From Methanothermococcus sp. Ax23 (GTDB lineage: Archaea; AGJL01; Methanococci; Methanococcales; Methanococcaceae): a DNA stretch of 64,000 bases. The number at the start of each line of letters is the position of its first letter. Position 1 is the first letter of the stretch. Made by a program: the position numbers and the translations under genes. Under the pieces are notes generated by a model. The model did not search any database. It was not told the DNA's origin and worked only from the letters and a program-made list of their open reading frames with translations. Shown here in pieces: positions 20,522 through 41,488 of this stretch. The DNA lies in NCBI RefSeq assembly GCF_049075655.1, contig NZ_CP157522.1, forward strand, positions 1,504,001 through 1,568,000. Direction: 5' to 3'.

Positions 20522-23500
20522 ATGTCTGAAAAAATAACACGCGCTGAACTTTCAAAGTTACTCAAATATGATGAATTAGATTGGAAAGAAAAAAATGAGA
20601 TAGCTTTAATATTGGGTAATGTCCATGATGCTCGTGAAATCAAAAAAATAGAGGGATATATCTTAAAACTTGCTCAGGAAAAAAACTTAGTTATACGAAC
20701 AAATTTAATAAAATCCATACGTGAGCTTTTGAACAATAACATTATTGACGAGAAAATATTTATTTTACTTTATTACATGGCCAATTCATCTTGCGACATA
20801 GTATCTAAATTTGCGAAGGAATACATACATTCCATAAACACAAAAATATTAAGCATGCATGTCGCACAGCTATCGAAAAAATTGTATTCGTCAAATCCTT
20901 ATGAAATGATGTATGCCTTAATCTCCATTGGATTAATTTCCACAATTACGCCTAAATATGTGGAAAATATCCTTCCAGAGATTGTATATATATCCACCCA
21001 TCATGAAAACAAGATGGTGCAAGGTATAGCCCTTGAAATCCTTAATGAATTTAACATGTTTGATAAAGAGTATATGCTGGAATTCTTTTCTTTAATATTA
21101 AATATATACATACATAATGCCAAAATAGATGGTTCCACCACTCCTTTACCAAGTGATAGAAAAAAAATTCAAGAATATGTAGTATATTTATATTTTAAAA
21201 AAGACTTGTGCAGAGAATCTATTTTGAATATATTGGCGTTATTATCGGACCATGAAGATTTACTTATAAAATCACTATGCAGTATTACATTATATGCCCA
21301 TAGTGAAGCATTATTTAATGTATTAGAAAATAACAGCGAGTTAAGTGAGTATTTATTGGATAAATTAATAGATTTTATTAAAAATAACAATTGGATGATT
21401 AGAGTTTCTACCATGTTCTTATTTACAAAATTAATGCTTTATGATAAAATAAATATTAAAAAGGAGTATTGTTCGATATTTTTTAGAGAAGTTTTGTTTA
21501 ATTTTAATAACGGAGAATATCTCACAAAAGGATTTACTCTTGAAATGCTATCCATGCTGTTAAGAAATAAAAAATATGTAGATGAGGTATCTAAAATCAT
21601 AGAAAAAGTTGGCTTAAATAATATAATGAAGGAATGTCATTTATGCTATTATAACGGATTATATGTTGCGTGTGAATTAAATAAACATGAATATTTTTCA
21701 GCAAAGTGTTCTCCACACTTTAGAGATGATTTCCTTGAGGAATTTAATTTATTAACCTATAATAAATATATTAGTCTAATCAATTCCATAATAGTTTCTG
21801 TAAAAAGAAAGGTATGGTTGGGAGGTTGGTTAGATAGATATTATGCTGGAAAATATTTGGGAAATCTCATATATGTAAAACCCCATCATGCCAATAAAAT
21901 GATTGATATAATATATCAACTATTGGACGATGACAATTACATTGTAAGAGGAACTGGAATATGGATTTTAAGGCTTATAACTGAGATGGGAATCCCCCTG
22001 CCAAAAGACATCATATCAAAATCTATTGATTCATGTTATGATTGGCATTGCGGCAATAGATTTGAATATGCCTTATTCTATTACACATTAATAAAAAAGT
22101 TTCCCGATATAATTGTCAAAGATAAATTACTCCTTCAAAAATTCATATCTGTAATAGTTACAAAATACATTACAGATGAAAACCCCTATGTTAGACACAT
22201 GTGTATTACATCACTAAAAATTATAAAATTGGATGAATCAAACGAATTATGGGACTTAATTAGGTTGTTTAAGAATTACCATAAATTATCCATCTATAAA
22301 AGAATTAACTTACTTGAAAACGCCTGGAAAATGCTTAATCAGAGAAAACCCATAGTCATGTTTATTAAATCTATATTAAAACATAATATCGAACATGAAG
22401 AATACGACACTATTGAATCGGTTTTACTTAGGTTTGTAAATATAACCGATGAAGAATTAATGTATATAATACCAGAACTTGTCTTATTAAGGGGGAAATC
22501 AGAAGCTGCTGAAAGAATACTACACAACCTTGAACAGAAATACCCGGAGCTCCCCCATGATTTAGAGAAGTCTGAATTTCAAAATATTAACGAGCATATA
22601 TCAACGATTAGAATGAAAAAATTAGAGGAATTGTTAATATATGTTAATGAAGGCTATCTAATAAGTCATGACTTGCTAGATAAACTTAAAGAAATAATAA
22701 TTTATGAAGATTGTAAAATTAATGTGGATGTTATAATAGAGATTTTGAAGAATATGGGAAACGAGCCTGAAAGTAATAAGATAATTGAAGAAACATCTGA
22801 ATTAATGGAGTATTTAAAGGAAAATCTTATACATTCTAATGTATTGAATATAAAAGATTTAAAATATAGAGATTGGAAAGAGATATATGCGAAGTTGTCA
22901 AATACGCTGATAGATGGACTTTCCAATGTATTTAAAAACGATAGTATTGAGGATATTATAGAATCATTTATGTATATGTTAAACAATAAAGATTGTGTAA
23001 TTTTAAAAATAAGAATTGTAGATATATTACTTGAAAGTATATATACTAATGATGAGCTCCTAAAAAAATTATCATGTCATAAAAATACATTCCCAACGTT
23101 ATTGAGTTTATATTTACGTAAGGGATACCATCTTTTGTCAAAAAAAGCTTTAATTCTTCTCGAAGAACTATCGCTAAGTAATAGTTATTGGATGAAAAAT
23201 AATCTAATAGAATACTTTAAAAATAACCCGTCAAATTTTGAAAAAATATTATTCATTATGTCTGAAAACATTTCTACAAATGTGATGATAGAGATATTGG
23301 GATTTATTGAATACGTATTTAAAAACGAAATGGCAGTATGTCGATTAGATGATGCTGTGTATATCGTGAAAATACTGGAAAAAATTAATAATAACTACCC
23401 GTGGTTTTTATTTAAAAAAACCGTCGATGTTATATTATCCTGCCAGAGTATAAAAACAAACAGGAAGCTGGTTAAAAAAGTCGCTAAAAAGCTAATAGAG

Positions 23501-23674
23501 TATGCAAAAAATTCAAAAGACGAAATAAATAAAGAGTATGTGTCAATATATATGAAAAAATTGTTAGGCGTCCAAAATATAAATATAGAGGAGCTCGACG
23601 AAGAAGCTATTGAGAATATTATTGACATTAGTATAAAGAATAAGACAGCCAACAACAACAATCAAACAACTTAG
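20522..23674 (+). CDS. Large HEAT/ARM-like alpha-helical hypothetical protein (1050 aa)
   Basis: Repeated HEAT-like motifs (LLDDDNYIVRGTG, DENPYVRHMC, NNNWMIRVST). Confidence 0.7.
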   Translation: MSEKITRAELSKLLKYDELDWKEKNEIALILGNVHDAREIKKIEGYILKLAQEKNLVIRTNLIKSIRELLNNNIIDEKIFILLYYMANSSCDIVSKFAKEYIHSINTKILSMHVAQLSKKLYSSNPYEMMYALISIGLISTITPKYVENILPEIVYISTHHENKMVQGIALEILNEFNMFDKEYMLEFFSLILNIYIHNAKIDGSTTPLPSDRKKIQEYVVYLYFKKDLCRESILNILALLSDHEDLLIKSLCSITLYAHSEALFNVLENNSELSEYLLDKLIDFIKNNNWMIRVSTMFLFTKLMLYDKINIKKEYCSIFFREVLFNFNNGEYLTKGFTLEMLSMLLRNKKYVDEVSKIIEKVGLNNIMKECHLCYYNGLYVACELNKHEYFSAKCSPHFRDDFLEEFNLLTYNKYISLINSIIVSVKRKVWLGGWLDRYYAGKYLGNLIYVKPHHANKMIDIIYQLLDDDNYIVRGTGIWILRLITEMGIPLPKDIISKSIDSCYDWHCGNRFEYALFYYTLIKKFPDIIVKDKLLLQKFISVIVTKYITDENPYVRHMCITSLKIIKLDESNELWDLIRLFKNYHKLSIYKRINLLENAWKMLNQRKPIVMFIKSILKHNIEHEEYDTIESVLLRFVNITDEELMYIIPELVLLRGKSEAAERILHNLEQKYPELPHDLEKSEFQNINEHISTIRMKKLEELLIYVNEGYLISHDLLDKLKEIIIYEDCKINVDVIIEILKNMGNEPESNKIIEETSELMEYLKENLIHSNVLNIKDLKYRDWKEIYAKLSNTLIDGLSNVFKNDSIEDIIESFMYMLNNKDCVILKIRIVDILLESIYTNDELLKKLSCHKNTFPTLLSLYLRKGYHLLSKKALILLEELSLSNSYWMKNNLIEYFKNNPSNFEKILFIMSENISTNVMIEILGFIEYVFKNEMAVCRLDDAVYIVKILEKINNNYPWFLFKKTVDVILSCQSIKTNRKLVKKVAKKLIEYAKNSKDEINKEYVSIYMKKLLGVQNINIEELDEEAIENIIDISIKNKTANNNNQTT

Positions 23675-23724: not shown

Positions 23725-25008
23725 TCAGAGCCCCGTAAATATTTTCTTCAAGTCAATATTTACATTTTCAACATATTCCTTTTGATTTTGCCCGTTGTGT
23801 TTTAAATTTATGGTTCTTATAAATAAATGTTCTTCCTCATTAAAGGCGTATTCTTTATTAAATTCTTTTTCGTATTTTGGATATAGTAATACTCCCTTTT
23901 TACAGTCGTATTTTTTTAAATAGGCAAACATTTGGTAGGCGTCGCTTTGATTTATATTGTAATTTTTAGTTTTATCGTCAATGAGATTTTTATATTTTGT
24001 ATCAATTATTAAAAATGGCTTGTTGGTGTTATTGGAGCTATAAACTACAATATCGGGCTTTAATCTAAAAGTGTTATTATTGTTTTCATCGGTCAATAGG
24101 TAGAGCTCACTATGTTGTAAGTGTATTACACATTCATTATTAAAAATTTCATCATAATGTTTTTTTAAAATAGTTCCGACAAATTCTTCAAATAAATAAT
24201 CCATGTTAAAAATTAAGGAAAAGGTTTTCAAATCCTTTGAATTTAAATTTGTTGATTCATTTAAAATAAACATTTTTGCCATTTCTATGTATGGCTTAAA
24301 CCTCTCGTTCATTCTGTTGAATTTTACTTTTTTAAAATCGTTAATAGTAATGGTTTTATAATCAATATCACTTAAAACAAAGCTTAAATCACTTAAAAGC
24401 TTCTTATTTTTTGGATTGTTTGTTATGTTTTTTAGGAGCTCTACGGCGTATTTAAAAATTTTATTTATTAAATTATTTTCTGAAAATTCCGCATATTTGC
24501 AGTATAATTTATGTTTATTTATATAATTATGTTTTATTTGCTTTGTGGTGTGTAGTTTTCCTTTTAAATATGTTAAATTTTCCTCTTTTTTGTTGTAGTT
24601 TTTGTAAATTCCGTTTTCAATCTCCTTTAATAAATTTTTAGCAAAAAGGTATATATAAATTTCAAATAAATCATTGTTCTTTGATAAATTTGCAAAATTT
24701 TCCTTAATTTTCAATTTCTTTGTGTATGAAAGCATATATAAAAGGTTGGTAAGTGCTTCTTTTTGTTTTTGTTCTTCGTTTCTTTCGTTTTTGTAAATTT
24801 TAGGTAGAATTTGAATTGTTGTGTTGTTTATTTTCAGAGCTCCTACAAATTGTTTTGCTTTTATTGTTTTATGCCCATCTTTAAAAATTTTTAATTTTCT
24901 GTTTAGTTTTATAAGTTTTAGGATGTCTTTTTTAGACATTCCGCAGTGTTTCAACTCCCCAAATGTTTTCCTTTCATGCTCAAAAAAAGTAATAGTTTTA
25001 TTTTTCAT
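23725..25008 (-). CDS. McrC-family restriction nuclease subunit
   Basis: IQILPKI, LKGKL, MDYLFEEFV, LKPDIV...IIDTKYK, DAYQMFAY, LLYP; overlaps/follows an McrB-like gene (unrelated to methyl-CoM reductase McrC). Confidence 0.93.
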   Translation of the reverse strand: MKNKTITFFEHERKTFGELKHCGMSKKDILKLIKLNRKLKIFKDGHKTIKAKQFVGALKINNTTIQILPKIYKNERNEEQKQKEALTNLLYMLSYTKKLKIKENFANLSKNNDLFEIYIYLFAKNLLKEIENGIYKNYNKKEENLTYLKGKLHTTKQIKHNYINKHKLYCKYAEFSENNLINKIFKYAVELLKNITNNPKNKKLLSDLSFVLSDIDYKTITINDFKKVKFNRMNERFKPYIEMAKMFILNESTNLNSKDLKTFSLIFNMDYLFEEFVGTILKKHYDEIFNNECVIHLQHSELYLLTDENNNNTFRLKPDIVVYSSNNTNKPFLIIDTKYKNLIDDKTKNYNINQSDAYQMFAYLKKYDCKKGVLLYPKYEKEFNKEYAFNEEEHLFIRTINLKHNGQNQKEYVENVNIDLKKIFTGL

Positions 25009-25018
25009 TTTACTCCCC

Positions 25019-27046
25019 TTATGTAATTACTGAATTTAATGCTTTTATAAATTCCTTCCCTTCATATTCTTTAATTTCATATAATTTTAAATCATCATCA
25101 ATTAAATCGTAATTTATTTTTATATTTGGTTTTTTATCATCGATAAAGCCCTTTAAAATCTCCTTTAAGCATTCCCAATCGTTGTAAAAGTATTCCATTA
25201 ATAAAGGTATTATTTCGTTATACCAAACAAATCTTAAATCATCTATATCTTTAACATTTAAAAAGTATGAATGCCCTATTCTGTGGTCTCTATCTTTTAA
25301 AAGTGTTATTTTAGTGTTTATTGTCTCCAATAGTTTTTTAAGGAATTCATCATTTCCTAATCTTTTGAACATTTTTTCAATGTCTTTTTTAGTGTTATTA
25401 AATTCCTCATCGTCGCATTTATTTTTCCATATCTTAATTAAACTATCCTTTGTTATTAAATCATAGATTGGCTCTATTTCTAGAAATCCAAATCTTCGCC
25501 TTAATGCTGTATCTAATAAGGCAATGCTTTTATCCGCGGTGTTCATTGTTCCGATTATATATAAATTTGGTGGCACTGCAAAAGGTTCTTTTGAATAAGG
25601 TAATTCTACTATCATTCCACCATCTTCTCCCCCTAATCGTTTATCCTTTTCTAAAAGTGTTATCAATTCCCCTAAAATGTTTGATATGTTCCCTCTGTTT
25701 ATTTCGTCTATTATTAGGTAATATTTTGGTGCATCTTGGAAATCGTCTTTTGTTAGTTCTTTGTTTTTGATTGCGTTTATTACTTTTTGTTTTATTTGTT
25801 CATAGTCATTAATATTGTCAAATTTAATATTTCCTATTTTTATTGAATTTTGATGTTCTAATGAGTATTTATCTAAATATTCAATTTCAATTTTCTTTAA
25901 TTCTTCAAGTATGGGATAAATATAGGAACGGTTTGATGCTCTAATGTCTGATGGTCTATTGATGTTGTATCTATCTAGCCAAATGTCTCTTAGTGTGATA
26001 ATGTCGATAGTAATTATTTTGTTATGGTTTTTTTCTAAAATTATTTTTTCATTACTATACTCGTCTTCTTCTAAATAATCCTTAATTTTAAATGATATGC
26101 CTCTTACAGTATTAAATACGCTTTCAGGCGGATATTTTTCCTTAAAAATATTCATTAATGGAAAGAAGTGATTATTTTTTATAAAATATACAACAAATAA
26201 GTAATCCAATTTTTTATTAAATCTTTGTTCAAGTAAATATTTAAATTCTGCAAATTTATCCAACACTCGTTTATAATCCCCCCATTTCATGTCATCAGAA
26301 TATTCAAACTCAATATCTAAAAAGTTATAAGCGAAGTCTACAACATTTTCATCAATTAATATAAATTTGTCAGGATATATCTTACATAAAAATTCAGTTG
26401 CTGGCTCAATGTATTCAAAATATTTTAAAAATGAAGAAAATAATTTCTTATTGTTATTTTCAGTTAATGCTAACCTTAGTAACTCATTAATGCGGTCTTC
26501 TTCTGCAAACCACCAATGCCAATCTAAATGCCAAAAATTTAAACTATCTAAATATTCACCATCTATTTTTTCATCATTTTTAACTCTATTTAATATTTTA
26601 CTAAACTCTTTTTTAGTATTTTCATACTCCTTAATTAGTTCTTTACCTTTCTCCGTTTCTAAATAATCTTTAAATAAACAAATAAGAAAGTTTAACTCCT
26701 CACTTAATTTAGTATCATTTAAAAAGTATGTTAAAGTTGTCTGTATTTTATTGTATTTGTTCTTCAAAGCTTCCCAAATTGCCAAAATACACATTTTTTT
26801 AAATATTCCATCTTCAACTTCATAAATAATATTTTCCATTTCAGTTTTTGGTTTTAATCCTTCAATAAACTCTTCGTAGGCGAATGTCTGATGAAATGTA
26901 ATTATTTTACTATGATTTATTTGATTTTCAATAAATTTCTTCGCTAAATATGTCTTTCCAACCCCTGGAACTCCATATAAAATTATTTGCTTTTTTCTTT
27001 CTAAAATTTTATCCATTTTATCAAATATTTTATTTTCAAATTCCAT
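25019..27046 (-). CDS. McrB-family AAA+ GTPase (type IV restriction) with a large internal insert
   Basis: QIILYGVPGVGKT, TFHQTFAYEEFIEG, IIDEINRGN, GTMNTADKSIALLDTALRRRF, IGHSYF, IIPLLMEYFY. Confidence 0.93.
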   Translation of the reverse strand: MEFENKIFDKMDKILERKKQIILYGVPGVGKTYLAKKFIENQINHSKIITFHQTFAYEEFIEGLKPKTEMENIIYEVEDGIFKKMCILAIWEALKNKYNKIQTTLTYFLNDTKLSEELNFLICLFKDYLETEKGKELIKEYENTKKEFSKILNRVKNDEKIDGEYLDSLNFWHLDWHWWFAEEDRINELLRLALTENNNKKLFSSFLKYFEYIEPATEFLCKIYPDKFILIDENVVDFAYNFLDIEFEYSDDMKWGDYKRVLDKFAEFKYLLEQRFNKKLDYLFVVYFIKNNHFFPLMNIFKEKYPPESVFNTVRGISFKIKDYLEEDEYSNEKIILEKNHNKIITIDIITLRDIWLDRYNINRPSDIRASNRSYIYPILEELKKIEIEYLDKYSLEHQNSIKIGNIKFDNINDYEQIKQKVINAIKNKELTKDDFQDAPKYYLIIDEINRGNISNILGELITLLEKDKRLGGEDGGMIVELPYSKEPFAVPPNLYIIGTMNTADKSIALLDTALRRRFGFLEIEPIYDLITKDSLIKIWKNKCDDEEFNNTKKDIEKMFKRLGNDEFLKKLLETINTKITLLKDRDHRIGHSYFLNVKDIDDLRFVWYNEIIPLLMEYFYNDWECLKEILKGFIDDKKPNIKINYDLIDDDLKLYEIKEYEGKEFIKALNSVIT

Positions 27047-32375: not shown

Positions 32376-32534
32376 ATGATAATAGAACATATAATAACGG
32401 CGATTTTAGTAATATTGATATTGATTGTAATGATAAAGATAGTAGTATCTGCCATAAAAACCGCCTTTAAATTGGCGATAATGGGATTTTTGTTCATAAT
32501 ACTGCTTTGGATTGTATTGAAGTTTATATTTTAA
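32376..32534 (+). CDS. Small two-helix membrane protein (52 aa), missing from the ORF track
   Basis: GGTGGG RBS, then MIIEHIITAILVILILIVMIKIVVSAIKTAFKLAIMGFLFIILLWIVLKFIF*. Confidence 0.7.
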   Translation: MIIEHIITAILVILILIVMIKIVVSAIKTAFKLAIMGFLFIILLWIVLKFIF

Positions 32535-32560
32535 TTTTAATTCAATTTTTTGGTGAATTT

Positions 32561-33301
32561 ATGGATAAAAATGGAGATAACTGCACCAACATTAACAATT
32601 TAAAATTAGACAAAACCCAAAGGGTTTTGTTGCTCGAACCTTCGGTTCGAATTATTAACGAATTTAAAAATCATCCTATAATACATAATTTAGTAGATTG
32701 GGAGATGCTAAACAAAATATTAAAAGAAAATAACATAAAATTAATAGATTTTGTAGGTAAAGGGCATCGGGGAGTAGTTTTTAAAGGTTTAATGGATGAT
32801 AAATTAGTTGCAGTTAAGGTGCCGAGAGTTGGGGCTAAAAATACAATCCACCATGAAGGAAGCATTTTAAAAGAAATTAACAAATTTGGAGTAGCCCCGA
32901 TAGTTTATAATTTTTCAGAGGATTTTCTTATTATGGAATTTGCAGAGGGCATTAGCTTAAAGGACTATATGAACCAAAATGATATTGATAAAAAAGAACT
33001 TTTATGGATTATTGAAGAAACTCTTAGACAGTGTTTAAGGCTCGATTTACATAAAATAGACCACACAGAGATTCAAGGGGGAAAGCATATTATCATCAAC
33101 AAAAATATTAATAAAATATACATCATAGATTTTGATAAGGCGAAAAAAAGGAGAGCTCACAACTTCACAAGTGCCATGGCATTGTTTTTTGGTAAGTGCT
33201 ATATAGCAAATAGGGTGAAAGATGTATTAAATATCTCTGAGGATGAAGAAAGCCATATTATGGAGCTCGTAAAACTGTATAAAAAAATAGTTTTAAAATA
33301 A
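32561..33301 (+). CDS. Atypical Ser/Thr protein kinase (RIO/Bud32-like)
   Basis: GKGHRGVV, VAVK, E..ILK, HTEIQG.KHII, IIDFDKA; GGTGA RBS. Confidence 0.85.
   Translation: MDKNGDNCTNINNLKLDKTQRVLLLEPSVRIINEFKNHPIIHNLVDWEMLNKILKENNIKLIDFVGKGHRGVVFKGLMDDKLVAVKVPRVGAKNTIHHEGSILKEINKFGVAPIVYNFSEDFLIMEFAEGISLKDYMNQNDIDKKELLWIIEETLRQCLRLDLHKIDHTEIQGGKHIIINKNINKIYIIDFDKAKKRRAHNFTSAMALFFGKCYIANRVKDVLNISEDEESHIMELVKLYKKIVLK
32605..32649 (+). repeat. Two-hairpin micro-element inside the kinase 5' coding region
   Basis: ATTAGA-CAAAACCC aaa GGGTTTTG-TTGC-TCGAACC ttc GGTTCG(A); ~45 bp, frame-preserving. Confidence 0.85.
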
Positions 33302-33328: not shown

Positions 33329-33781
33329 ATGGGAAAGAAGTATTTATTAATTTTATCATGTTCAAAAACTAAAAAGAACATTGACCGAGCTCCTGCAATA
33401 GAGCTCTACGATGGTATGTATTACAGAGTTTTAAGAAAAAATTTTAATTTAAAAGATAATAAAAATTTAGATATTTTAATATTATCTGCAAAATACGGTT
33501 TAATAGATTCCAATGAAATAATTGATTATTACGACCAATTAATGACTTCAAAAAGGGCGGAAGAATTAAAAGATAGTGTTAAATCAAAATTAAAAGAAGT
33601 TCTAAAAAATAACAACTACGATGAAATATTTATCACCATGGGGGCAACATACGAAAAGGCATTTGATAGTGAATGTAGGGAGCTCCTACAAAAATACAAC
33701 ACTCACTGGATTGAGGGCATGATTGGGGAGAGGCTTCAACAATTGAAAAAATGGTTAATATCCATTAATAATGATAAATAA
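33329..33781 (+). CDS. DUF6884/YaaA-like protein
   Basis: LILSCSKTK..PAIELYDG.YY, ILILSAKYGLI, YYDQ.M motifs. Confidence 0.8.
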   Translation: MGKKYLLILSCSKTKKNIDRAPAIELYDGMYYRVLRKNFNLKDNKNLDILILSAKYGLIDSNEIIDYYDQLMTSKRAEELKDSVKSKLKEVLKNNNYDEIFITMGATYEKAFDSECRELLQKYNTHWIEGMIGERLQQLKKWLISINNDK

Positions 33782-33787
33782 AATAAA

Positions 33788-36106
33788 ATGCAGAATAGTG
33801 ATAATATGACATTGGAACTAAATGAATTTATAAACTCTATTGAAAATATATTGGGGTATGAGCTCAACACCAAACAGAAAGATGCCATACTTCACAAGGA
33901 TAATCCACTATGGGTTGTAGCAGGTCCTGGCTCCGGTAAAACTGAGGTTTTAGTGGTAAGAACTTTAAAGCTTATTTATGTGGATGGTGTAAATCCAAAA
34001 TCCATAATATTAACCACATTTACGAAAAAGGCTTCCCAAAATCTATTTAATAGAATTTTAAATTATTCAAATAAACTATGTGATATACATCCAAAATTAA
34101 AGGAGCTCAACATTGATATTCATAGCTTGAGAGTTGGAACACTTCACAGTTTATGCTCTGATATTATGAAGGAATATAAGTATATTGATTATGAAAATTA
34201 CAAACTAATGAATGAGATGGAAAATTATCTTTTTATATATAATCACTGCGAGCTCGTAAAGAACGGGGAGTTCTATAAAGAAGAATTATGGAAAAAATTT
34301 CAATATTTGGTTAAAAAATGGAACGCAGATAATAAAGAATGGTACATTGATACCAAAGATAAGGCAAGATTGGCTAAGGCAACTATTACATTATTTAATA
34401 GAATTGTAGAGGATAGGTTGGATTTGAATAAAATGAAGGTGAGCTCTAAAAAACACCACAGAATATTGGCAGAAGAATATGAAAAATTCATTGATAAATT
34501 GGAAGAATTTAAACTATGCAATTTTGCCACTGTGCAGTTAAAATTTTTAGAATTTTTAGATTCTGAGGACGGGGATTTATTTTTAAATGGTGGTGGGCAC
34601 AATCCAGAATTAAAATATATTATGGTGGATGAATACCAAGATACAAATCCTATTCAAGAGGAAATATATTTTAAATTGGCAAAGCATACTGAAAATAAAA
34701 ATTTATGTGTTGTAGGGGATGATGACCAGGCGTTGTATAGATTTAGGGGCGGGACTGTTGATTGTATGGTAAGGTTTGGTGATTCCTGCGAGAAAAAGTT
34801 GGGAATTCCAAAGGAGAATGTGAATAAAATATTTTTAAACTTAAATTATAGGTCTCATAAGGATATTGTAAAGTATTGCAATGATTATATAACATCCTTT
34901 GAGAAGTTAAAAAATGTTGAAATGGAAAAAGCAAGAGTTAAAGGTAAGCCACCATTAAAACCAGAAAAATCAATTAATGAAACATATCCTGCTTTAAACT
35001 ATCTCAAAGAAGAAAAAGATGAAGAATTAGCAAAAAAGGTTGTAGATGCTGTAAAATATTTTAAAGAAAATAGCATTATTGAGGATTACTCCCAATGTGT
35101 GTTATTAATCAAAAGCACAAGGGAAATAGATTATAAAGGAGAAAAGACCTTTATAGGACATGCTGTAAGTGAATTAACCAATAAGGGCATTGAAACATAC
35201 AATCCAAGGTCAAAGAACTTTTTAAGTCAAGAAGAAATAAAATTGGCATTGGGGGCATTCATATCTATTGTAGATAACGATTTGTATGTTCTGGAAAATA
35301 AACTGAGCTCTGAAAATATAAGCTCCGTTGTTGTAAATTGGTTTAATGAATATGAAAAAAATAAAGATAAATATCTAGAATTAAAGGAATATGTTGATAA
35401 ATCTGTCGAGAAAATCAAAAGTATGAAAGCAGGGAACTGGACAAATGCAACTATACAAGACATTCTTTATAAAATATTTGCATGCAGTCCTTTTTCAGAG
35501 TGGATGGATGACACTGAAAAAAGTTGTAGATTGGCAAAACTCACTCAAATATTTGATAGTTATTCATCAATACCTATGGATAATCCAGAGGTAAGCAGGG
35601 GAGCTCTGAAAATTGATTCGGAAGAGGATGGAAAAATTGACACTTTGTGGTTAATAAACTTTTACGGTTCTCTTGTTGGGCACTTTGTAAATGGGATGGA
35701 CGATTTAGAGGATGAGGAAGTAATAATTCCAGATGGGAAATTTCCTATTATGACTGTGCATCAGGCAAAAGGTTTGGAATTTCCAATAGTTTTCGTATAT
35801 GTTGAGAATTGGAAGGCTGAAGCAGATGCAGGCGCAAGATTGGAAGGGGAATTTTCAGAATACACAGATTTTAAAAGAATTACAACTAACCAATTCATAA
35901 AAACTAATCAAGACATGGTAAGATTTCACTATGTGGCATACTCACGAGCTCAGTATGGACTCATACATTTGTGGAGCTCCGAAAATTTGGAAAAGAGAAA
36001 GAGGAATAAGAGCAAATTGTATGGATTTATAAAAGGAAAACCAAATAATCTTGTAAGATATATTAAGAACCTCTATAATGGGAATGGTGCTAATAATACT
36101 TTATAA
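33788..36106 (+). CDS. UvrD/PcrA-like SF1 helicase
   Basis: AGPGSGKT, TFTKKA, GTLHS, VDEYQDTN, VGDDDQALYRFRG, NYRS, MTVHQAKGLEFPIVF, YVAYSRA. Confidence 0.95.
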   Translation: MQNSDNMTLELNEFINSIENILGYELNTKQKDAILHKDNPLWVVAGPGSGKTEVLVVRTLKLIYVDGVNPKSIILTTFTKKASQNLFNRILNYSNKLCDIHPKLKELNIDIHSLRVGTLHSLCSDIMKEYKYIDYENYKLMNEMENYLFIYNHCELVKNGEFYKEELWKKFQYLVKKWNADNKEWYIDTKDKARLAKATITLFNRIVEDRLDLNKMKVSSKKHHRILAEEYEKFIDKLEEFKLCNFATVQLKFLEFLDSEDGDLFLNGGGHNPELKYIMVDEYQDTNPIQEEIYFKLAKHTENKNLCVVGDDDQALYRFRGGTVDCMVRFGDSCEKKLGIPKENVNKIFLNLNYRSHKDIVKYCNDYITSFEKLKNVEMEKARVKGKPPLKPEKSINETYPALNYLKEEKDEELAKKVVDAVKYFKENSIIEDYSQCVLLIKSTREIDYKGEKTFIGHAVSELTNKGIETYNPRSKNFLSQEEIKLALGAFISIVDNDLYVLENKLSSENISSVVVNWFNEYEKNKDKYLELKEYVDKSVEKIKSMKAGNWTNATIQDILYKIFACSPFSEWMDDTEKSCRLAKLTQIFDSYSSIPMDNPEVSRGALKIDSEEDGKIDTLWLINFYGSLVGHFVNGMDDLEDEEVIIPDGKFPIMTVHQAKGLEFPIVFVYVENWKAEADAGARLEGEFSEYTDFKRITTNQFIKTNQDMVRFHYVAYSRAQYGLIHLWSSENLEKRKRNKSKLYGFIKGKPNNLVRYIKNLYNGNGANNTL

Positions 36107-36125
36107 ATAAATATTTGGTGAAAAT

Positions 36126-37061
36126 GTGCTATTTGAGACGCTTAACAAATATAAATCTTTAAAAATAAAAAAAGAAGAAGATAATGATAAAATAAAACAA
36201 AAATACAGCATTACCGCAGATATACTATCCTTTCAAATATGTAAAAGGCAGTATGGATTTAACACAGTTAAGGGGTTTAGCAATACTCAGGAAACTCAGG
36301 AATGGCATGGAACCTTAATTCATCAGGTTTTAAGCAGATTGCATGGAAAATATCTACATAATGTAAAGCTTAAAAATAAAGGAATAATTGGAGAAAAAGA
36401 TTTAATACCAACAGATAAAGATGTAGAGGAGCTCTTTAAAAAAGCAAATGAAGTTTTAAAATCAAGAGGTATTAAACCAAAAAGTAGGGAAAATGAGGAA
36501 AAAATACTAAATCTTTTAAAAATATTTAATAAAAGGGAAGGGAAAACACTATATCCAAGGATTGTTGATTCTGAGTTAAGATTGCAGGCAGATATGGGGG
36601 ATTACATACTATACGGGGTAATAGATGTCGTTGTTGAAGGGAATGAAGGCATTGAAATATGGGATTACAAAGGAATGAAATTTCCAGATTTAAACCGAGA
36701 CTGGGGAAAGAAAAAACTCAGAAGATATGAATACCAAATGCTTGTTTATGCCGAGCTCTACAAACAGAGGTTCGGGAATTACCCTTCAAAATGTGTTTTG
36801 TATTTTATGAATGAGCTCACTAAGGGGAGCCCCCCTTATTTGAAATATGTGATTGATTTTAACGATAAGAATAATATTGATAAAATTAAAGATGCAATTG
36901 AAGATTTTTCAAATACTGTTAAAAAAATAGAATACTGCAAGGAAAACAACAATTGGACTATTGATGAAAAAGAAAAGCCAGACAAAGAAACCTGTGATGT
37001 TTGCGATTTAAGATGGAGTTGCCCCGCAGTTAAGGGAAAATATGAGATAAAACCCCTTTAA
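36126..37061 (+). CDS. RecB/Cas4-like PD-(D/E)XK nuclease with a predicted Fe-S staple
   Basis: N-terminal C (FQICKRQY), GTLIH, GVIDV..EIWDYKG, QMLVYA, C-terminal CDVCDLRWSC. Confidence 0.9.
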   Translation: MLFETLNKYKSLKIKKEEDNDKIKQKYSITADILSFQICKRQYGFNTVKGFSNTQETQEWHGTLIHQVLSRLHGKYLHNVKLKNKGIIGEKDLIPTDKDVEELFKKANEVLKSRGIKPKSRENEEKILNLLKIFNKREGKTLYPRIVDSELRLQADMGDYILYGVIDVVVEGNEGIEIWDYKGMKFPDLNRDWGKKKLRRYEYQMLVYAELYKQRFGNYPSKCVLYFMNELTKGSPPYLKYVIDFNDKNNIDKIKDAIEDFSNTVKKIEYCKENNNWTIDEKEKPDKETCDVCDLRWSCPAVKGKYEIKPL

Positions 37062-37074
37062 ATAAGGATAGAAT

Positions 37075-37169
37075 ATTAGACAAAATCACTTCGTGATTTT
37101 GTTGTTTGTCCAAGCGAAGCGAAGGACAACTTAAAACCGTAGGTTTTAGGTCGCTTGCTACCGCAAACG
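37075..37169 (+). repeat. Four-hairpin micro-element
   Basis: ATTAGACAAAATCAC ttc GTGATTTTGTTG / TTGTCC..GGACAA / TAAAACC gta GGTTTTA / CGCTTGC tacc GCAAACG; same layout as 46327-46418. Confidence 0.85.
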
Positions 37170-37258
37170 ATAACACAACTGGCAATGATAAATCTAATAT
37201 AACTTATTATTTAATTAATTAATAAAATTTATACTAACTATTACCTATCGGTGTAATA

Positions 37259-38521
37259 ATGATAAGATATTTTTTACCAGACTGGGAAGACAGATTAGAC
37301 CCAAATTTTGATTTTATAAATGATGAATACTCAGAAGAACATAAAACGAATCCCTATGAAAATGATGTGTATGCTCACCAAATTTTTAAAGAGCCCCCTT
37401 ATGATGGTATTTTATTTAGTTTAAGCGTTTTTAAGTCTAAAATCTCATTAAACAATAAAAAAGAAATTTACAAAATAAGAAATCATACGAGCATAAAGGA
37501 TTATTTAAAAATCCCTAAAAACTCAAATTTAGAAGTAATGGGAGACTGTGGAGCATTTGGATATGTAAATGAAAAAGAGCCACCGTTGCCCTTTTACAGC
37601 GTTGAAAATGTTGCCAAATTATACCATAAATTAGGTTTTGATTATGGAGTAGCTCCTGACCATTTAGTAGTGGATAAAATAACGATAAAAGACGAAAACG
37701 GAAAGAAAAAGAAAGTTCCTCTTACTCAAAAAGAGAAAGATTATAGGATAAACCTTACTTTGGAAAATGCTGAAAAGTTTTTAAAACTACACAATAAAAA
37801 AGGATACAACTACATACCCATTGGGACAGCACAGGGTTATGATGTGGAATCCTATAAGAGCTCCGTTAAATCACTTGTTGATATGGGTTATAATTACATT
37901 GCTCTTGGAAGTCTTGTAGGTTATAAGACCGAATTTATATTGAACATACTTCATGGAATACAGCCTGTGATAAGTGAAGACATAAAAATCCATTTATTTG
38001 GTGTTGTAAGAATAGGAGCTCTGAAAAAATTTGAAGAGTTGGGAGTTAAAAGTTTGGACAGCACCTCATTTTTAAGAAAGGCATGGTTAAGGTCAGGTCA
38101 AAATTATATGAAAGATGGTAAAGGGTATGCTGCTATAAGAGTTCCCTATACTTCAAATCCGAGAACTACGAAGAAAGTATTGGAAAAAGGATATTCAATG
38201 GAGTATTTAAAAGAGTTAGAACGCCGAGCTCTGAAAACACTGTTAGATTATGAAAAGGGACTGATTGATATAGATAAGACTCTTGATATTGTAATGGAAT
38301 ATGATAAATTATTTTTAAGAAACTCGAGAGATGGGAAAAATTTAAGGGAAAAATATTATAAAACTTTAAAAGATAAACCTTGGGAATCCTGCGAATGCCC
38401 CATATGTAAAGAACTGGGCATACATGTGGTGATATTTAGGGGAACCAATAGGAATAAGAGAAGGGGATTTCATAATGTATGGGAGCTCAGGCGGATGATG
38501 AAAGGCAATCAAAATGTCTAA
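37259..38521 (+). CDS. dpdA: DpdA-like tRNA-guanine transglycosylase paralog (candidate DNA 7-deazaguanine transglycosylase)
   Basis: YFLPDWEDRLDP.FDF..D N-terminus, MGDCGAF, DHL, IGTAQG, IALGSL, IHLFG, SLDST, CECPIC...G..RNKRRGFHN; no ArcTGT C-terminal PUA domain. Confidence 0.85.
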   Translation: MIRYFLPDWEDRLDPNFDFINDEYSEEHKTNPYENDVYAHQIFKEPPYDGILFSLSVFKSKISLNNKKEIYKIRNHTSIKDYLKIPKNSNLEVMGDCGAFGYVNEKEPPLPFYSVENVAKLYHKLGFDYGVAPDHLVVDKITIKDENGKKKKVPLTQKEKDYRINLTLENAEKFLKLHNKKGYNYIPIGTAQGYDVESYKSSVKSLVDMGYNYIALGSLVGYKTEFILNILHGIQPVISEDIKIHLFGVVRIGALKKFEELGVKSLDSTSFLRKAWLRSGQNYMKDGKGYAAIRVPYTSNPRTTKKVLEKGYSMEYLKELERRALKTLLDYEKGLIDIDKTLDIVMEYDKLFLRNSRDGKNLREKYYKTLKDKPWESCECPICKELGIHVVIFRGTNRNKRRGFHNVWELRRMMKGNQNV

Positions 38522-38881
38522 TTATTTATGCGAAAAAAGAGAGCAACTCCAAAATTGTTGTTTTATGCATTAGAGTATGTTTTATGAGAAAATACATACC
38601 AATAATGTCTGACCTACTCCAACGAGTGAACTCGTTGGGTTCTCGCTTACGGTAGTAAGCGAGCAACGAAATCACGAAGTGATTTCGTCTAATTTTAGTA
38701 GGGTTTAACCCTACACGGGTGGCCAAGCCCACTACCCCTACCCATTAATGGGTTCAGGGCTACGCTATGCACTTCCAACCACTACCAGCGGTAGAGTTTT
38801 CACTAACCCTACCCATAGATACTTGGACTGGTAGCGTTACTTACTACTAATCTTCATATATTTATATTTTACTACTTACTA

Positions 38882-39926
38882 GAGGTTGTCGAAAAATATT
38901 AAATTATCAATAACATATAATACATGTTATGAAGGGGAATATAAAAAAGAAAATAGAAAAGAAAAAGACCAATCCTAAGACAAAAGGATACTGGAGAATA
39001 TACGACCTTAGATATAAGAAATACGACCTAAGAACTACTTATACGTTGATTTTATCCATTACAAACATGCTGAATCGTCCTTCTACCGAAGGACGAAAGG
39101 TTGGTAGGGTATCTGCCCTACCCTATAATGAATATGTGGTAGTTCTAATATTAAAACATATCTACAAACTAAGTTTAAGGGATTTAGAGACACTCTCAAA
39201 TACATTACATAACAAACATATTGACCATTCCACATACGGTAAAGCATTCAAGCGAATAGATACCTGGTGGTTATCTACCTTACTTACTTTTACATATGTA
39301 ATTATAGATAATCTACTAACTCAGCCCTCCAACAAACTATATATGGCAGACTCAACAGGAGTTTCCATAAATAGGTTATACTATGAGTGCATTCACGGAG
39401 GGAAACGTACTAAACGATTGGTGCATGATAAATTGCATGTTCTAGCATCATACTATCCAGAACAAGGATATATTCCAATAATCTCCGCCCGTTGGGGCGG
39501 AGGTTATAGTTCCGATAGTGCCAACCTATTGGAAATGGTTAAACAGATTGATTTTTTAGATAATGAATATCTACTGGCTGATGGAGGATATGATTGCTGT
39601 GAATTGTTTGAATATTTACTACAACACAATATCACTCCAATAGTTAAAACAAAAGAATTCAAGTGGAAGTATCATATTAGCAAAGTTAGAAAAACCATTA
39701 AGAGCATGTTTAACAAGGATTGGTATCGCCTTCGGGGGATAGTAGAATCCATATTTGGAGGGCTGGAGACTAAAAACAGGTTAAAATTAGATGACAGGTT
39801 GGCGGATAGCAGATGTAAAAGCACTATCGCAGTAGCGATAGTGCATAACATATTAACACTAATGAGGATATTAGTATTAACATATGATACCAAATAAATT
39901 TACTAATTCAATTATTCGACAACCTC
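38882..39926 (+). mobile_element. IS5/IS4-superfamily DDE insertion sequence (1045 bp)
   Basis: Terminal inverted repeats GAGGTTGTCGAA...TTCGACAACCTC; 9-bp TSD TACTTACTA at 38873-38881 and 39927-39935. Confidence 0.92.
38929..39897 (+). CDS. DDE transposase (DDE_Tnp_1-like)
   Basis: ADSTG, KLH, LADGGYD, YRLRGIVESIFG motifs. Confidence 0.9.
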   Translation: MKGNIKKKIEKKKTNPKTKGYWRIYDLRYKKYDLRTTYTLILSITNMLNRPSTEGRKVGRVSALPYNEYVVVLILKHIYKLSLRDLETLSNTLHNKHIDHSTYGKAFKRIDTWWLSTLLTFTYVIIDNLLTQPSNKLYMADSTGVSINRLYYECIHGGKRTKRLVHDKLHVLASYYPEQGYIPIISARWGGGYSSDSANLLEMVKQIDFLDNEYLLADGGYDCCELFEYLLQHNITPIVKTKEFKWKYHISKVRKTIKSMFNKDWYRLRGIVESIFGGLETKNRLKLDDRLADSRCKSTIAVAIVHNILTLMRILVLTYDTK

Positions 39927-40041
39927 TACTTACTAGCCAATATAATGTCCGCCTCTCATCCAATCTCGTAAGAGATTTTACAAAACTATGTTTTGTATAA
40001 CGACTGAAGTCGTTGGCTTTCCCGGCGGTTTATCGTAAATA

Positions 40042-40533: not shown

Positions 40534-40723
40534 TCACGCGAATTTCAAACATTTTAATTTATGTGTGTCGTATATATAAATATTATGGGATTATGACATA
40601 TAGCTATCCAATTTATTACCATAATGGATTGTTAAGTTCAAACTATTCATATCTAAATTTATTAAATAAAATTATATATAGTATCAAATGGATAACTATA
40701 AAATAAAATATAGAGGGGATATT

Positions 40724-41488
40724 ATGGTAAAAATTATAGAAAAAATAATAAAAGATGCAGAGCCATTAAAAGATGCTATATTAATAGAGGGCCTTCCAGG
40801 AATAGGTCATGTAGGTAGAATAGCCGCAGAACATTTAATTCATGAATTTAATGGAGAAAAAGTTTTAGAACTTTATTGTGATGATTTTCCACCGCAAGTT
40901 TTGGTTAATAATGATGGAACAGTTGAATTTATGAATAATGAATTTTATTTAATAAAAGAACCAGTTCCCATGGTCGTAGTTCTTGGAAATACTCAAGCAC
41001 TTTCACCTGCGGGCCAATATCAACTTTCTCAAAAAATCGTAGAAATTGGTATAAGATACGGTGCAAAAATCACCTATACATTAGGGGGATTCGGCATAGG
41101 GCAGATAAAAGATACACCAACAGTTTATGTAGCTTCAACATCAAAAGAATTAGCCGATAAAATAAGCGAGCTCGGTGCTGAATTTAGACAGGATGGTGGA
41201 AGTATTATAGGAGCTGCTGGTTTGATGCTCACATTTTCAAAATTAAATGGCATTGAGGGGGTATGTCTTATGGGAGAAACTCCTGGATACTTGGTAGACC
41301 CAAAATCTGCAAGAAGAGTATTGGAAATACTTTCAAAGTTTGTTGGATTTGAGATTAGCATGAAAGAACTTGAAGAAAGGGCAAAAGAGATGGAAAAGTT
41401 CCTTGAAAAAATTAGAAAGTTCGAAGAAGAGGCATTGCAACAGCAGCAGATTCCTGCAAGTGAAGATGATTTAAGATATATAGGATAA
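40724..41488 (+). CDS. Proteasome assembly chaperone PAC2-family protein
   Basis: IEGLPGIGHVG, FPPQV, TLGGF, IIGAAGL, CLMGETPGYLVDPK, DLRYIG. Confidence 0.9.
   Translation: MVKIIEKIIKDAEPLKDAILIEGLPGIGHVGRIAAEHLIHEFNGEKVLELYCDDFPPQVLVNNDGTVEFMNNEFYLIKEPVPMVVVLGNTQALSPAGQYQLSQKIVEIGIRYGAKITYTLGGFGIGQIKDTPTVYVASTSKELADKISELGAEFRQDGGSIIGAAGLMLTFSKLNGIEGVCLMGETPGYLVDPKSARRVLEILSKFVGFEISMKELEERAKEMEKFLEKIRKFEEEALQQQQIPASEDDLRYIG

Follow-up and report, generated by a model that had tools for sequence, protein, structure and literature searches.

Modification of cellular DNA with 7-deazaguanine has so far been documented only in bacteria that carry large dpdA–K islands, as far as the available text of PMC5699537 and PMC10164549 goes, and the same sources treat the reading of the mark and the mode of restriction in these Dpd systems as still-open questions. 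In Salmonella Montevideo DpdA, Asp95 acts as general acid/base, Asp130 serves base recognition and Asp256 is the nucleophile, and this classical DpdA requires the ATPase of DpdB (Gedara et al. 2023, PMC10164549). According to a 2016 review (PMC5699537), 92% of dpdA genomes carry DpdB and 88% carry dpdC, and the gene contexts drawn in its available parts are bacterial and phage only. Here we analyse a four-gene cassette within a 64,000-nucleotide stretch of Methanothermococcus sp. Ax23 DNA (GCF_049075655.1, NZ_CP157522.1 positions 1,504,001–1,568,000; hereafter the window), which a sequence-only reading had picked out as a minimal archaeal DpdA system. The cassette is probably a shortened version of the Dpd 7-deazaguanine restriction–modification system that is self-contained, horizontally mobile and without DpdB, although appreciable doubt attaches to that assignment. 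Its compact, DpdB-less architecture appears to be new; the type of system, the DpdA family and the DpdC domain are known.

The cassette spans window positions 33329–38521 and consists of four open reading frames (ORFs), all on the plus strand and separated by gaps of 6, 19 and 197 bp. In order, these encode a 150-aa DUF6884 protein (33329..33781), a 772-aa UvrD/PcrA-type superfamily 1 helicase with UvrD-helicase and UvrD_C domains (33788..36106), a 311-aa PD-(D/E)XK (RecB/Cas4-like) nuclease with a four-Cys Fe–S-type motif (36126..37061), and the 420-aa DpdA, a predicted DNA-guanine transglycosylase (37259..38521). The ORF list thus confirms the extent and common orientation given by the sequence-only reading, and the DpdA, DUF6884 and PDDEXK_1 families that it had named were all matched in searches.

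The product of the last gene matches the NCBIfam DpdA equivalog NF041059 with 426.6 bits against a cut-off of 200, over model positions 1–403 of 406, and the PADLOC DpdA model with an E-value of 1.2e-123; models of the tRNA-guanine transglycosylase (TGT) family reach about 32–34 bits. Alignment to the S. Montevideo DpdA structure 7UI4 extends over residues 2–411 (274.6 bits, E 1e-80) and places D96, D134 and D267 on Asp95, Asp130 and Asp256, respectively. These three aspartates and the Cys3His Zn site formed by C378, C380, C383 and H405 are invariant in 25/25 DpdAs from the loci studied and in 45/45 database homologues. The TGT motifs noticed from the sequence alone were located at G95–F100 (GDCGAF), S265–T269 (SLDST), C378, C380 and C383 (CECPIC) and H405, and the reported lack of ArcTGT C-terminal domains holds, since Pfam finds the TGT domain alone, with no PUA or other C-terminal domain. 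We accordingly assign the protein as a true DpdA, in keeping with the NCBI label of its relatives, ‘tRNA-guanine transglycosylase DpdA’. Because a distinct full-length ArcTGT (658 bits; cut-off, 350) and ArcS are encoded elsewhere in the genome, the cassette protein is predicted to be a third TGT-superfamily paralogue and not a tRNA enzyme. One further active-site position was considered as a marker of the clade: Q192 (window 37832–37834) aligns to the base-contacting His181 of the S. Montevideo enzyme (PMC10164549). That candidate was ruled out, Gln being present in 25/25 DpdAs, the two classical DpdB-linked ones included.

The first gene supplies what appears to be a reduced DpdC. Its product matches PF21818 (DUF6884) with 65.2 bits against a Pfam cut-off of 30, and DUF6884 is named as the Pfam domain of DpdC in the available text of the GATOR-GC preprint. 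The 82 homologues found range from 82 to 263 aa, and C11, S12, K15, Y27, I51, S53, G57, Y68 and Y108 are invariant in an alignment of 62 sequences. That alignment shares C-[ST]-x2-K, LYxG and SAxYGL with its following Tyr with three DpdCs of classical loci (L045, L046 and L049), which are true DpdCs by their PADLOC DpdC matches (1e-66 to 3.5e-79); hhalign comparison with the same three gave 95% probability and E 3.5e-8 over the core. Because DUF6884 is DpdC's own Pfam domain and the core motifs of DpdC are kept, we assign the 150-aa protein as a mini-DpdC, a small enzyme predicted to attack the nitrile of DNA-borne preQ0 through its conserved Cys. It falls short of a full-length DpdC (about 310–325 aa), the classical proteins carrying ~170 additional C-terminal residues, and its PADLOC matches to DpdC models are weak (7.9e-7 over positions 50–131 of 319). 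No NCBIfam model matched the DpdC or DUF6884 proteins. PF21818 is fused to DpdA in 13 of the top 120 DpdA homologues; a complex prediction for DpdA with the DUF6884 protein scored 0.00, which counts neither for nor against binding.

Structural comparison of the mini-DpdC gave two leading matches. The AlphaFold2 model (pLDDT 94.2) best matches E. coli YaaA (5caj; Z 9.7, root-mean-square deviation 3.2, 143 residues aligned) and then AF0587 (2q07; Z 9.5, root-mean-square deviation 3.4, 123 aligned), which we take to be an ArcS-type protein; the next match has Z 6.8, and Foldseek again returned YaaA and AF0587 as the top two. When the DUF6884 alignment was run as a profile against PDB sequences, nothing matched, so the link to YaaA and AF0587 comes from the fold searches alone. 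The ArcS catalytic domain (DUF5591, PF17884) matches the cassette protein with 18.5 bits, below its cut-off of 26, a distant similarity only. ArcS of the same genome scores 162.8 bits with DUF5591 and contains LPCSSKKPY and TSPYGIV; hhalign paired LSCSKTK with LPCSSKK and SAKYGLI with TSPYGIV (54%, E 1.3e-4, with a single-sequence template). For this likeness we assume that the ArcS motif is the one that has been published. Viral ArcS proteins consist of the DUF5591 catalytic core alone (Hutinet et al. 2023, PMC10516641, in its available text).

The two central genes encode a motor and a nuclease. The helicase matches UvrD-helicase (178.7 bits, 2.4e-52) and UvrD_C (2e-17) in Pfam and falls far under every NCBIfam equivalog cut-off (PcrA, 162 versus 911); its Walker A (A45–K51) and DEYQD (281–285) motifs are kept in at least 90% of 19 orthologues. 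The nuclease matches PDDEXK_1 (75.2 bits, 1e-20), and its weak NCBIfam matches are to Cas4 and the AddA C-terminal nuclease. Catalytic residues D167, D180-Y-K182 and Q204...Y208 are conserved in nine aligned orthologues, and the cysteines C39 and C-terminal CDVCDLRWSC recur as an N-terminal Cys plus CxxCx5C in 17/17 nuclease orthologues from other loci, presumably the Fe–S pattern of AddB and Cas4. The pair thus resembles an AddA divided between two genes and furnished with a cluster of the AddB/Cas4 type, for which the term AddAB-like fits better than the earlier AdnAB-like. Membership in three known groups was rejected. Cas4 itself is ruled out by 21.4 bits against the TIGR00372 cut-off of 65, and no cas genes occur among the ORFs of 28–44 kb; an AddA/AddAB equivalog is ruled out by 128.6 bits against 707.65 for addA_Gpos, with the nuclease in a separate gene; and Gabija was set aside because GajB-type models match the helicase (1.7e-33) but GajA matched none of the four cassette proteins in PADLOC.

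DpdB (NF041060) had no match in the host genome, which is 98.9% complete, and the same search, used as a control, found DpdB in 3/3 classical genomes and in 0/2 genomes of the DpdB-less clade. Models for DpdD–K gave no match among the PADLOC matches listed for the four cassette proteins (for the helicase, the best 25 of 36 families), and the flanks of the cassette are housekeeping genes. The earlier statement that neither dpdB nor dpdC is present therefore stands for DpdB and is not quite right for dpdC, DUF6884 being DpdC's own Pfam domain with the core motifs kept. The supply of preQ0 from the host, as had been proposed, is consistent with the gene content: QueC (219 bits) is encoded 13 kb before the window, and QueD, ArcTGT and ArcS are also present in the host genome.

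Among 61 related genomes, DpdA above cut-off was found in four (4/40 of the phylum), and all four of these carry all four genes in identical order. The nuclease occurs in exactly these four genomes, and DUF6884 in 10/61. In two genera the cassette lies at one shared site, between the gene for a small kinase-like protein (32507..33301, plus strand) and a PAC2 gene (40688–41488), which bracket the insertion here. In 3/4 cassette-free relatives examined, the kinase gene lies next to the PAC2 gene, and in the fourth PAC2 alone was seen in the stretch inspected; the fourth carrier, from another family, has the cassette in an unrelated housekeeping context. The cassette is thus best described as an accessory island that is, to judge from this distribution, horizontally mobile. 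The orthologous cassette of genome G010 bears a 552-aa GmrSD_N protein (DUF262-type, type IV restriction-like; L023:10806–12464, minus strand) and a 77-aa ORF, inserted between nuclease and DpdA. Two other relatives carry a parallel DUF6884–NurA–HerA–TGT-like cassette (G020, L057:3952–8963; G045, L058:4740–10102), in which the TGT-like protein has 329–342 aa, no Pfam match and a weak DpdA match (7.3e-10).

To extend the comparison, distant loci were collected by an alignment-based scan with one genome per species, which yielded 24 loci; a query with the single DpdA protein gave no relative. Loci were scored with purpose-built hidden Markov models and Pfam. The scan used peptide patterns from the N-terminus of the cassette's own clade, which biases the proportions of architectures, and L035 and L036 are identical. 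Four separate genes were present at 11/24 loci (10 in the same order, one rearranged). UvrD and nuclease accompany a DpdA::DUF6884 fusion at two loci, and at one, on a contig end, the fusion is followed by UvrD; one locus has a truncated UvrD–nuclease–DpdA arrangement. At three (L037, L039 and L042) HerA with a NurA-like or unassigned ORF takes the place of UvrD and nuclease, the ORF beside HerA in L037 being without a Pfam match, and at one (L041) a DpdJ-like helicase accompanies DpdA. The remaining loci comprise one DpdA–DUF6884 pair on a short contig with unreadable context, one broken DpdA, and three classical loci with DpdB and DpdC. Carriers include Methanoperedens, Methanotrichaceae, Methanoregula, Methanobacterium, Thermoplasmatales, Altiarchaeota, Hydrothermarchaeota, Dehalococcoidia, Anaerolineales and Bacteroidota. 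Recurrence of the four genes in 4/4 DpdA-positive relatives and 11/24 distant loci puts their association far beyond chance.

In a DpdA tree, the 23 DpdB-less DpdAs form one clade (support 100/100) that mixes archaea and bacteria, with two classical DpdAs as a long-branched outgroup. The constant part of the DpdB-less loci with readable context is DpdA plus the DUF6884 domain, separate or fused; what varies between loci is the ATP-dependent DNA motor that each of them has, in most cases together with a nuclease (UvrD with the Cas4-like protein, HerA with NurA, or a DpdJ-like helicase). Because this pattern is that of a modification module with interchangeable effectors, we read the cassette as a compact restriction–modification system of the Dpd type. 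Relatives on mobile elements were few: one of 50,697 phage records contains a relative, at 31.8% identity, and plasmid relatives were seen in a cyanobacterium (L055, NC_019762.1) and in Paenibacillus (L056, NZ_CP043762.1). The plasmid DpdAs have ~690–700 aa with a long N-terminal extension and stand with QueD, QueC and QueE, L055 also with DndB-like, DEAD/DEAH-box helicase and PLD-like genes and L056 with DpdJ. They were ruled out as the same cassette, their architectures being different ones with DndB-like, DpdJ and PLD genes.

Compared with the classical dpdA–K systems of S. Montevideo and other bacteria (PMC10164549, PMC5699537, as far as their available text describes them), the cassette shares an orthologous DpdA with the same Asp triad and Zn site, a partner of the DUF6884/DpdC family with the same core motifs, island behaviour and linked helicase and nuclease genes, and at L041, a locus of the DpdB-less clade, the helicase is itself DpdJ-like. 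It differs in lacking DpdB and DpdD–K, in having DpdC reduced to ~150 aa or fused to DpdA, in an effector composed of UvrD and an Fe–S PD-(D/E)XK nuclease, in size (5.2 kb versus about 20 kb), in its occurrence in archaea as well as bacteria, and in DpdAs that form a separate clade. The DpdA modules of phages and archaeal viruses (PMC10516641, PMC6884629, in the parts available) likewise dispense with DpdB and pair DpdA with a small stand-alone domain whose fold is that of YaaA, DUF5591 and DUF6884 and whose presumed target is the nitrile of preQ0; those modules, however, serve viral anti-restriction, lack the helicase–nuclease pair and use DUF5591, whereas the cassette is chromosomal and uses DUF6884.

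The effector half recalls other machines. AddAB/AdnAB and Cas4 share with it a UvrD-family motor, a RecB-family nuclease and the C...CxxCx5C cluster typical of AddB/Cas4, but in the cassette helicase and nuclease are separate small proteins, with no second subunit and no CRISPR context. BREX-related capture (BRC; PMC12839542, from its available text) also has a TGT without DpdB or DpdC in a motor-centred defence, and its authors suggest an NTPase replacing DpdB; it differs in having seven components (PglZ, DUF6079, STAND, DUF4007, HerA, GNAT and TGT), of which TGT alone is in the cassette, and in lacking DUF6884. Among PADLOC systems, the DUF6884 protein matches PDC-M57A (2.8e-13), but the other three cassette proteins matched none of the PDC-M57 components, and no definition of PDC-M57 was found in the searchable literature. 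A preprint on YprA describes, in its available text, Dpd-like systems built on YprA helicases. Literature searches for dpdA with DUF6884 returned GATOR-GC only, those for dpdA with UvrD one unrelated phage paper, and those combining YaaA, transglycosylase, DNA modification and helicase no paper; supplements may list DpdB-less or archaeal dpdA contexts. The searchable literature gave no paper describing the cassette architecture, in line with the sequence-only reading, which had called it apparently uncharacterised. Its core proposal of a compact DpdA system with host preQ0, a DUF6884 helper and a helicase–nuclease effector agrees with all computed comparisons, and co-occurrence of the four genes elsewhere, on which it had made itself depend, was found; the adjective archaeal proved too narrow, the cassette being present in Chloroflexota and Bacteroidota as well.

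In the mechanism that we propose, DpdA would take preQ0 from the host archaeosine pathway and exchange it for guanine in double-stranded DNA. The mini-DpdC, with a Cys-x3-Lys motif as in DpdC and the ArcS catalytic domain, would then convert the nitrile carried by the DNA, the most likely product being the amide dADG, and the UvrD-type helicase and Fe–S PD-(D/E)XK nuclease would act as an AddAB-like unit degrading DNA without the mark. Several considerations weigh against this interpretation. We infer from sequence comparison that a modified base is present in DNA, what its chemistry is, and that the helicase–nuclease pair acts in restriction; none of the parts found explains how a pair of the UvrD–Cas4 type would sense a mark. 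Classical DpdA needs the ATPase of DpdB, yet DpdB was not found here. The mini-DpdC, without the ~170 C-terminal residues of DpdC and with a core-only model match, may form a product other than dADG, and the frequencies of architectures are biased by the clade-specific N-terminal search patterns. Lastly, short near-identical contigs in two vent metatranscriptome runs of one study cover UvrD, the UvrD/nuclease junction and the DpdA 3′ end; DNA may be present in such libraries, and these contigs are no proof of transcription.

The dependence of classical DpdA on DpdB gives the closest rival its force. Under this alternative the helicase, alone or together with the nuclease, is part of the modification machinery and replaces DpdB as the ATP-driven opener of DNA, so that the cassette only marks and protects, or one motor does both. 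An essential DpdB ATPase in the classical system (PMC10164549), the failure to find DpdB here, and the ATPase motor (UvrD, HerA or DpdJ-like) beside DpdA in every DpdB-less locus with readable context all suit it, and a similar replacement of DpdB by another NTPase has been proposed for BRC (PMC12839542, available text). The nuclease is its difficulty: the orthologues all keep D...D-x-K, QxxxY and the Fe–S cysteines, which a pure modification role would not need, and the replacement partners NurA and DpdJ are nucleases or restriction-associated proteins. Phage DpdAs, moreover, are not known to need DpdB or a motor. We regard this alternative as unlikely, if worth keeping in mind. Given the need of the classical enzyme for a DpdB ATPase, and with no DpdB found here, the motor may serve modification as well, a role that does not exclude restriction.

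Other roles fare less well. The patchy, mobile distribution and the insertion sequence (IS) and repeats at the cassette edge could suggest that a virus, plasmid or integrated element carries the cassette for its own protection, with DpdA providing anti-restriction, as established in phages (PMC6884629, in its available part), and the helicase–nuclease serving recombination or replication of the element. The cassette is, however, a clean four-gene insertion between housekeeping genes with no integrase, capsid or replication genes, it occupies the same chromosomal site in two genera, and relatives on phages and plasmids amount to that single phage record and to plasmid loci of other architectures; we judge such an origin improbable. 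Still less credit is due to a role in DNA repair or damage tolerance, in which a TGT-like exchanger would swap damaged guanine in concert with helicase–nuclease end processing. UvrD and RecB-type nucleases are indeed classic repair enzymes, and YaaA, whose fold DUF6884 resembles, carries an annotation as a peroxide-stress protein, but the genes are accessory and patchy (4/61) and not core, the match to the DpdA equivalog is a strong one, DUF6884 is the domain of DpdC itself, and defence genes lie within or beside the cassette (GmrSD_N, McrBC). That the TGT paralogue modifies tRNA or other RNA is hardly credible at all: it is a member of the TGT superfamily and some sources label its relatives queuine/archaeosine tRNA-ribosyltransferase, yet the genome holds a separate full-length ArcTGT and ArcS, and the cassette DpdA lacks PUA and C-terminal domains, scores 33.6 bits with tgt_general against 426.6 with the DpdA model, and reaches E 1e-80 with a solved DNA-guanine transglycosylase. 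The compact restriction–modification system thus stays the reading that we consider probable.

Around and within the cassette, the window contains several other features. A hairpin-rich short repeat (37066..37175) fills the 197-bp gap between nuclease and DpdA, which measures about 20 bp in orthologous cassettes; it has 32 matches in the genome and includes a 33-bp module at about 20 genomic sites. Just 3′ of DpdA lies a multi-hairpin repeat of ~270 bp (38608–38875), with 48 genome matches, 19 of them near full length at 84–100% identity, and no family in Rfam. Its summed contig depth in two vent RNA libraries was about 1,400–2,000 (X1) and 170–210 (X2) compared with at most 40 on DpdA, values subject to copy-number and depth caveats, and it may be an abundantly transcribed repeat. 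An IS element outside the system (38872..39936, plus strand) is inserted at the end of this repeat; it has a DDE transposase ORF at 38929–39897 (DDE_Tnp_1, 1.1e-9) between 26-nt inverted repeats (38872–38897 and 39911–39936), and in 4/4 runs there were IS-free contigs in which 38871 connects to 39926, with 11 nt of overlap shared. About 6 kb upstream of the cassette, where the GC content of the window is at its lowest (about 0.26), an McrBC type IV restriction pair (23725–27046, minus strand; McrC PF10117, 275.7 bits, with an AAA_5 McrB-like ATPase) constitutes a second defence locus, beside which a 1050-aa protein (20522–23674, plus strand) shows faint HEAT-repeat matches only. No tRNA genes and no Rfam families were found in the window, and a scan for sigma-70 promoters and terminators gave 36 against 29.5 expected, with a sigma-70 model that is unsuited to archaea.

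The cassette reduces the Dpd theme to one transglycosylase, one mini-DpdC and one helicase–nuclease pair, a frame that recurs with one motor exchanged for another. The four-gene version would thus be a simpler system in which to approach the minimal needs of DpdA, the role of the DpdC-type domain and the discrimination of marked from unmarked DNA by a helicase–nuclease, and the host order of methanogens has relatives with genetic tools. A more far-reaching and decidedly tentative idea, which we think rather unlikely as a whole, is that chromosomes of methanogens and other archaea are marked independently of DpdB with 7-deazaguanine from the tRNA-archaeosine precursor pool, that the DUF6884 enzyme makes dADG or an archaeosine-like amidine, and that one motor both opens self DNA for DpdA and drives the nuclease on foreign DNA, the mark acting as a Chi-like stop signal. 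The cassette itself would be the first case of 7-deazaguanine DNA chemistry in archaeal chromosomes, and would tie defence to the archaeosine tRNA pathway.

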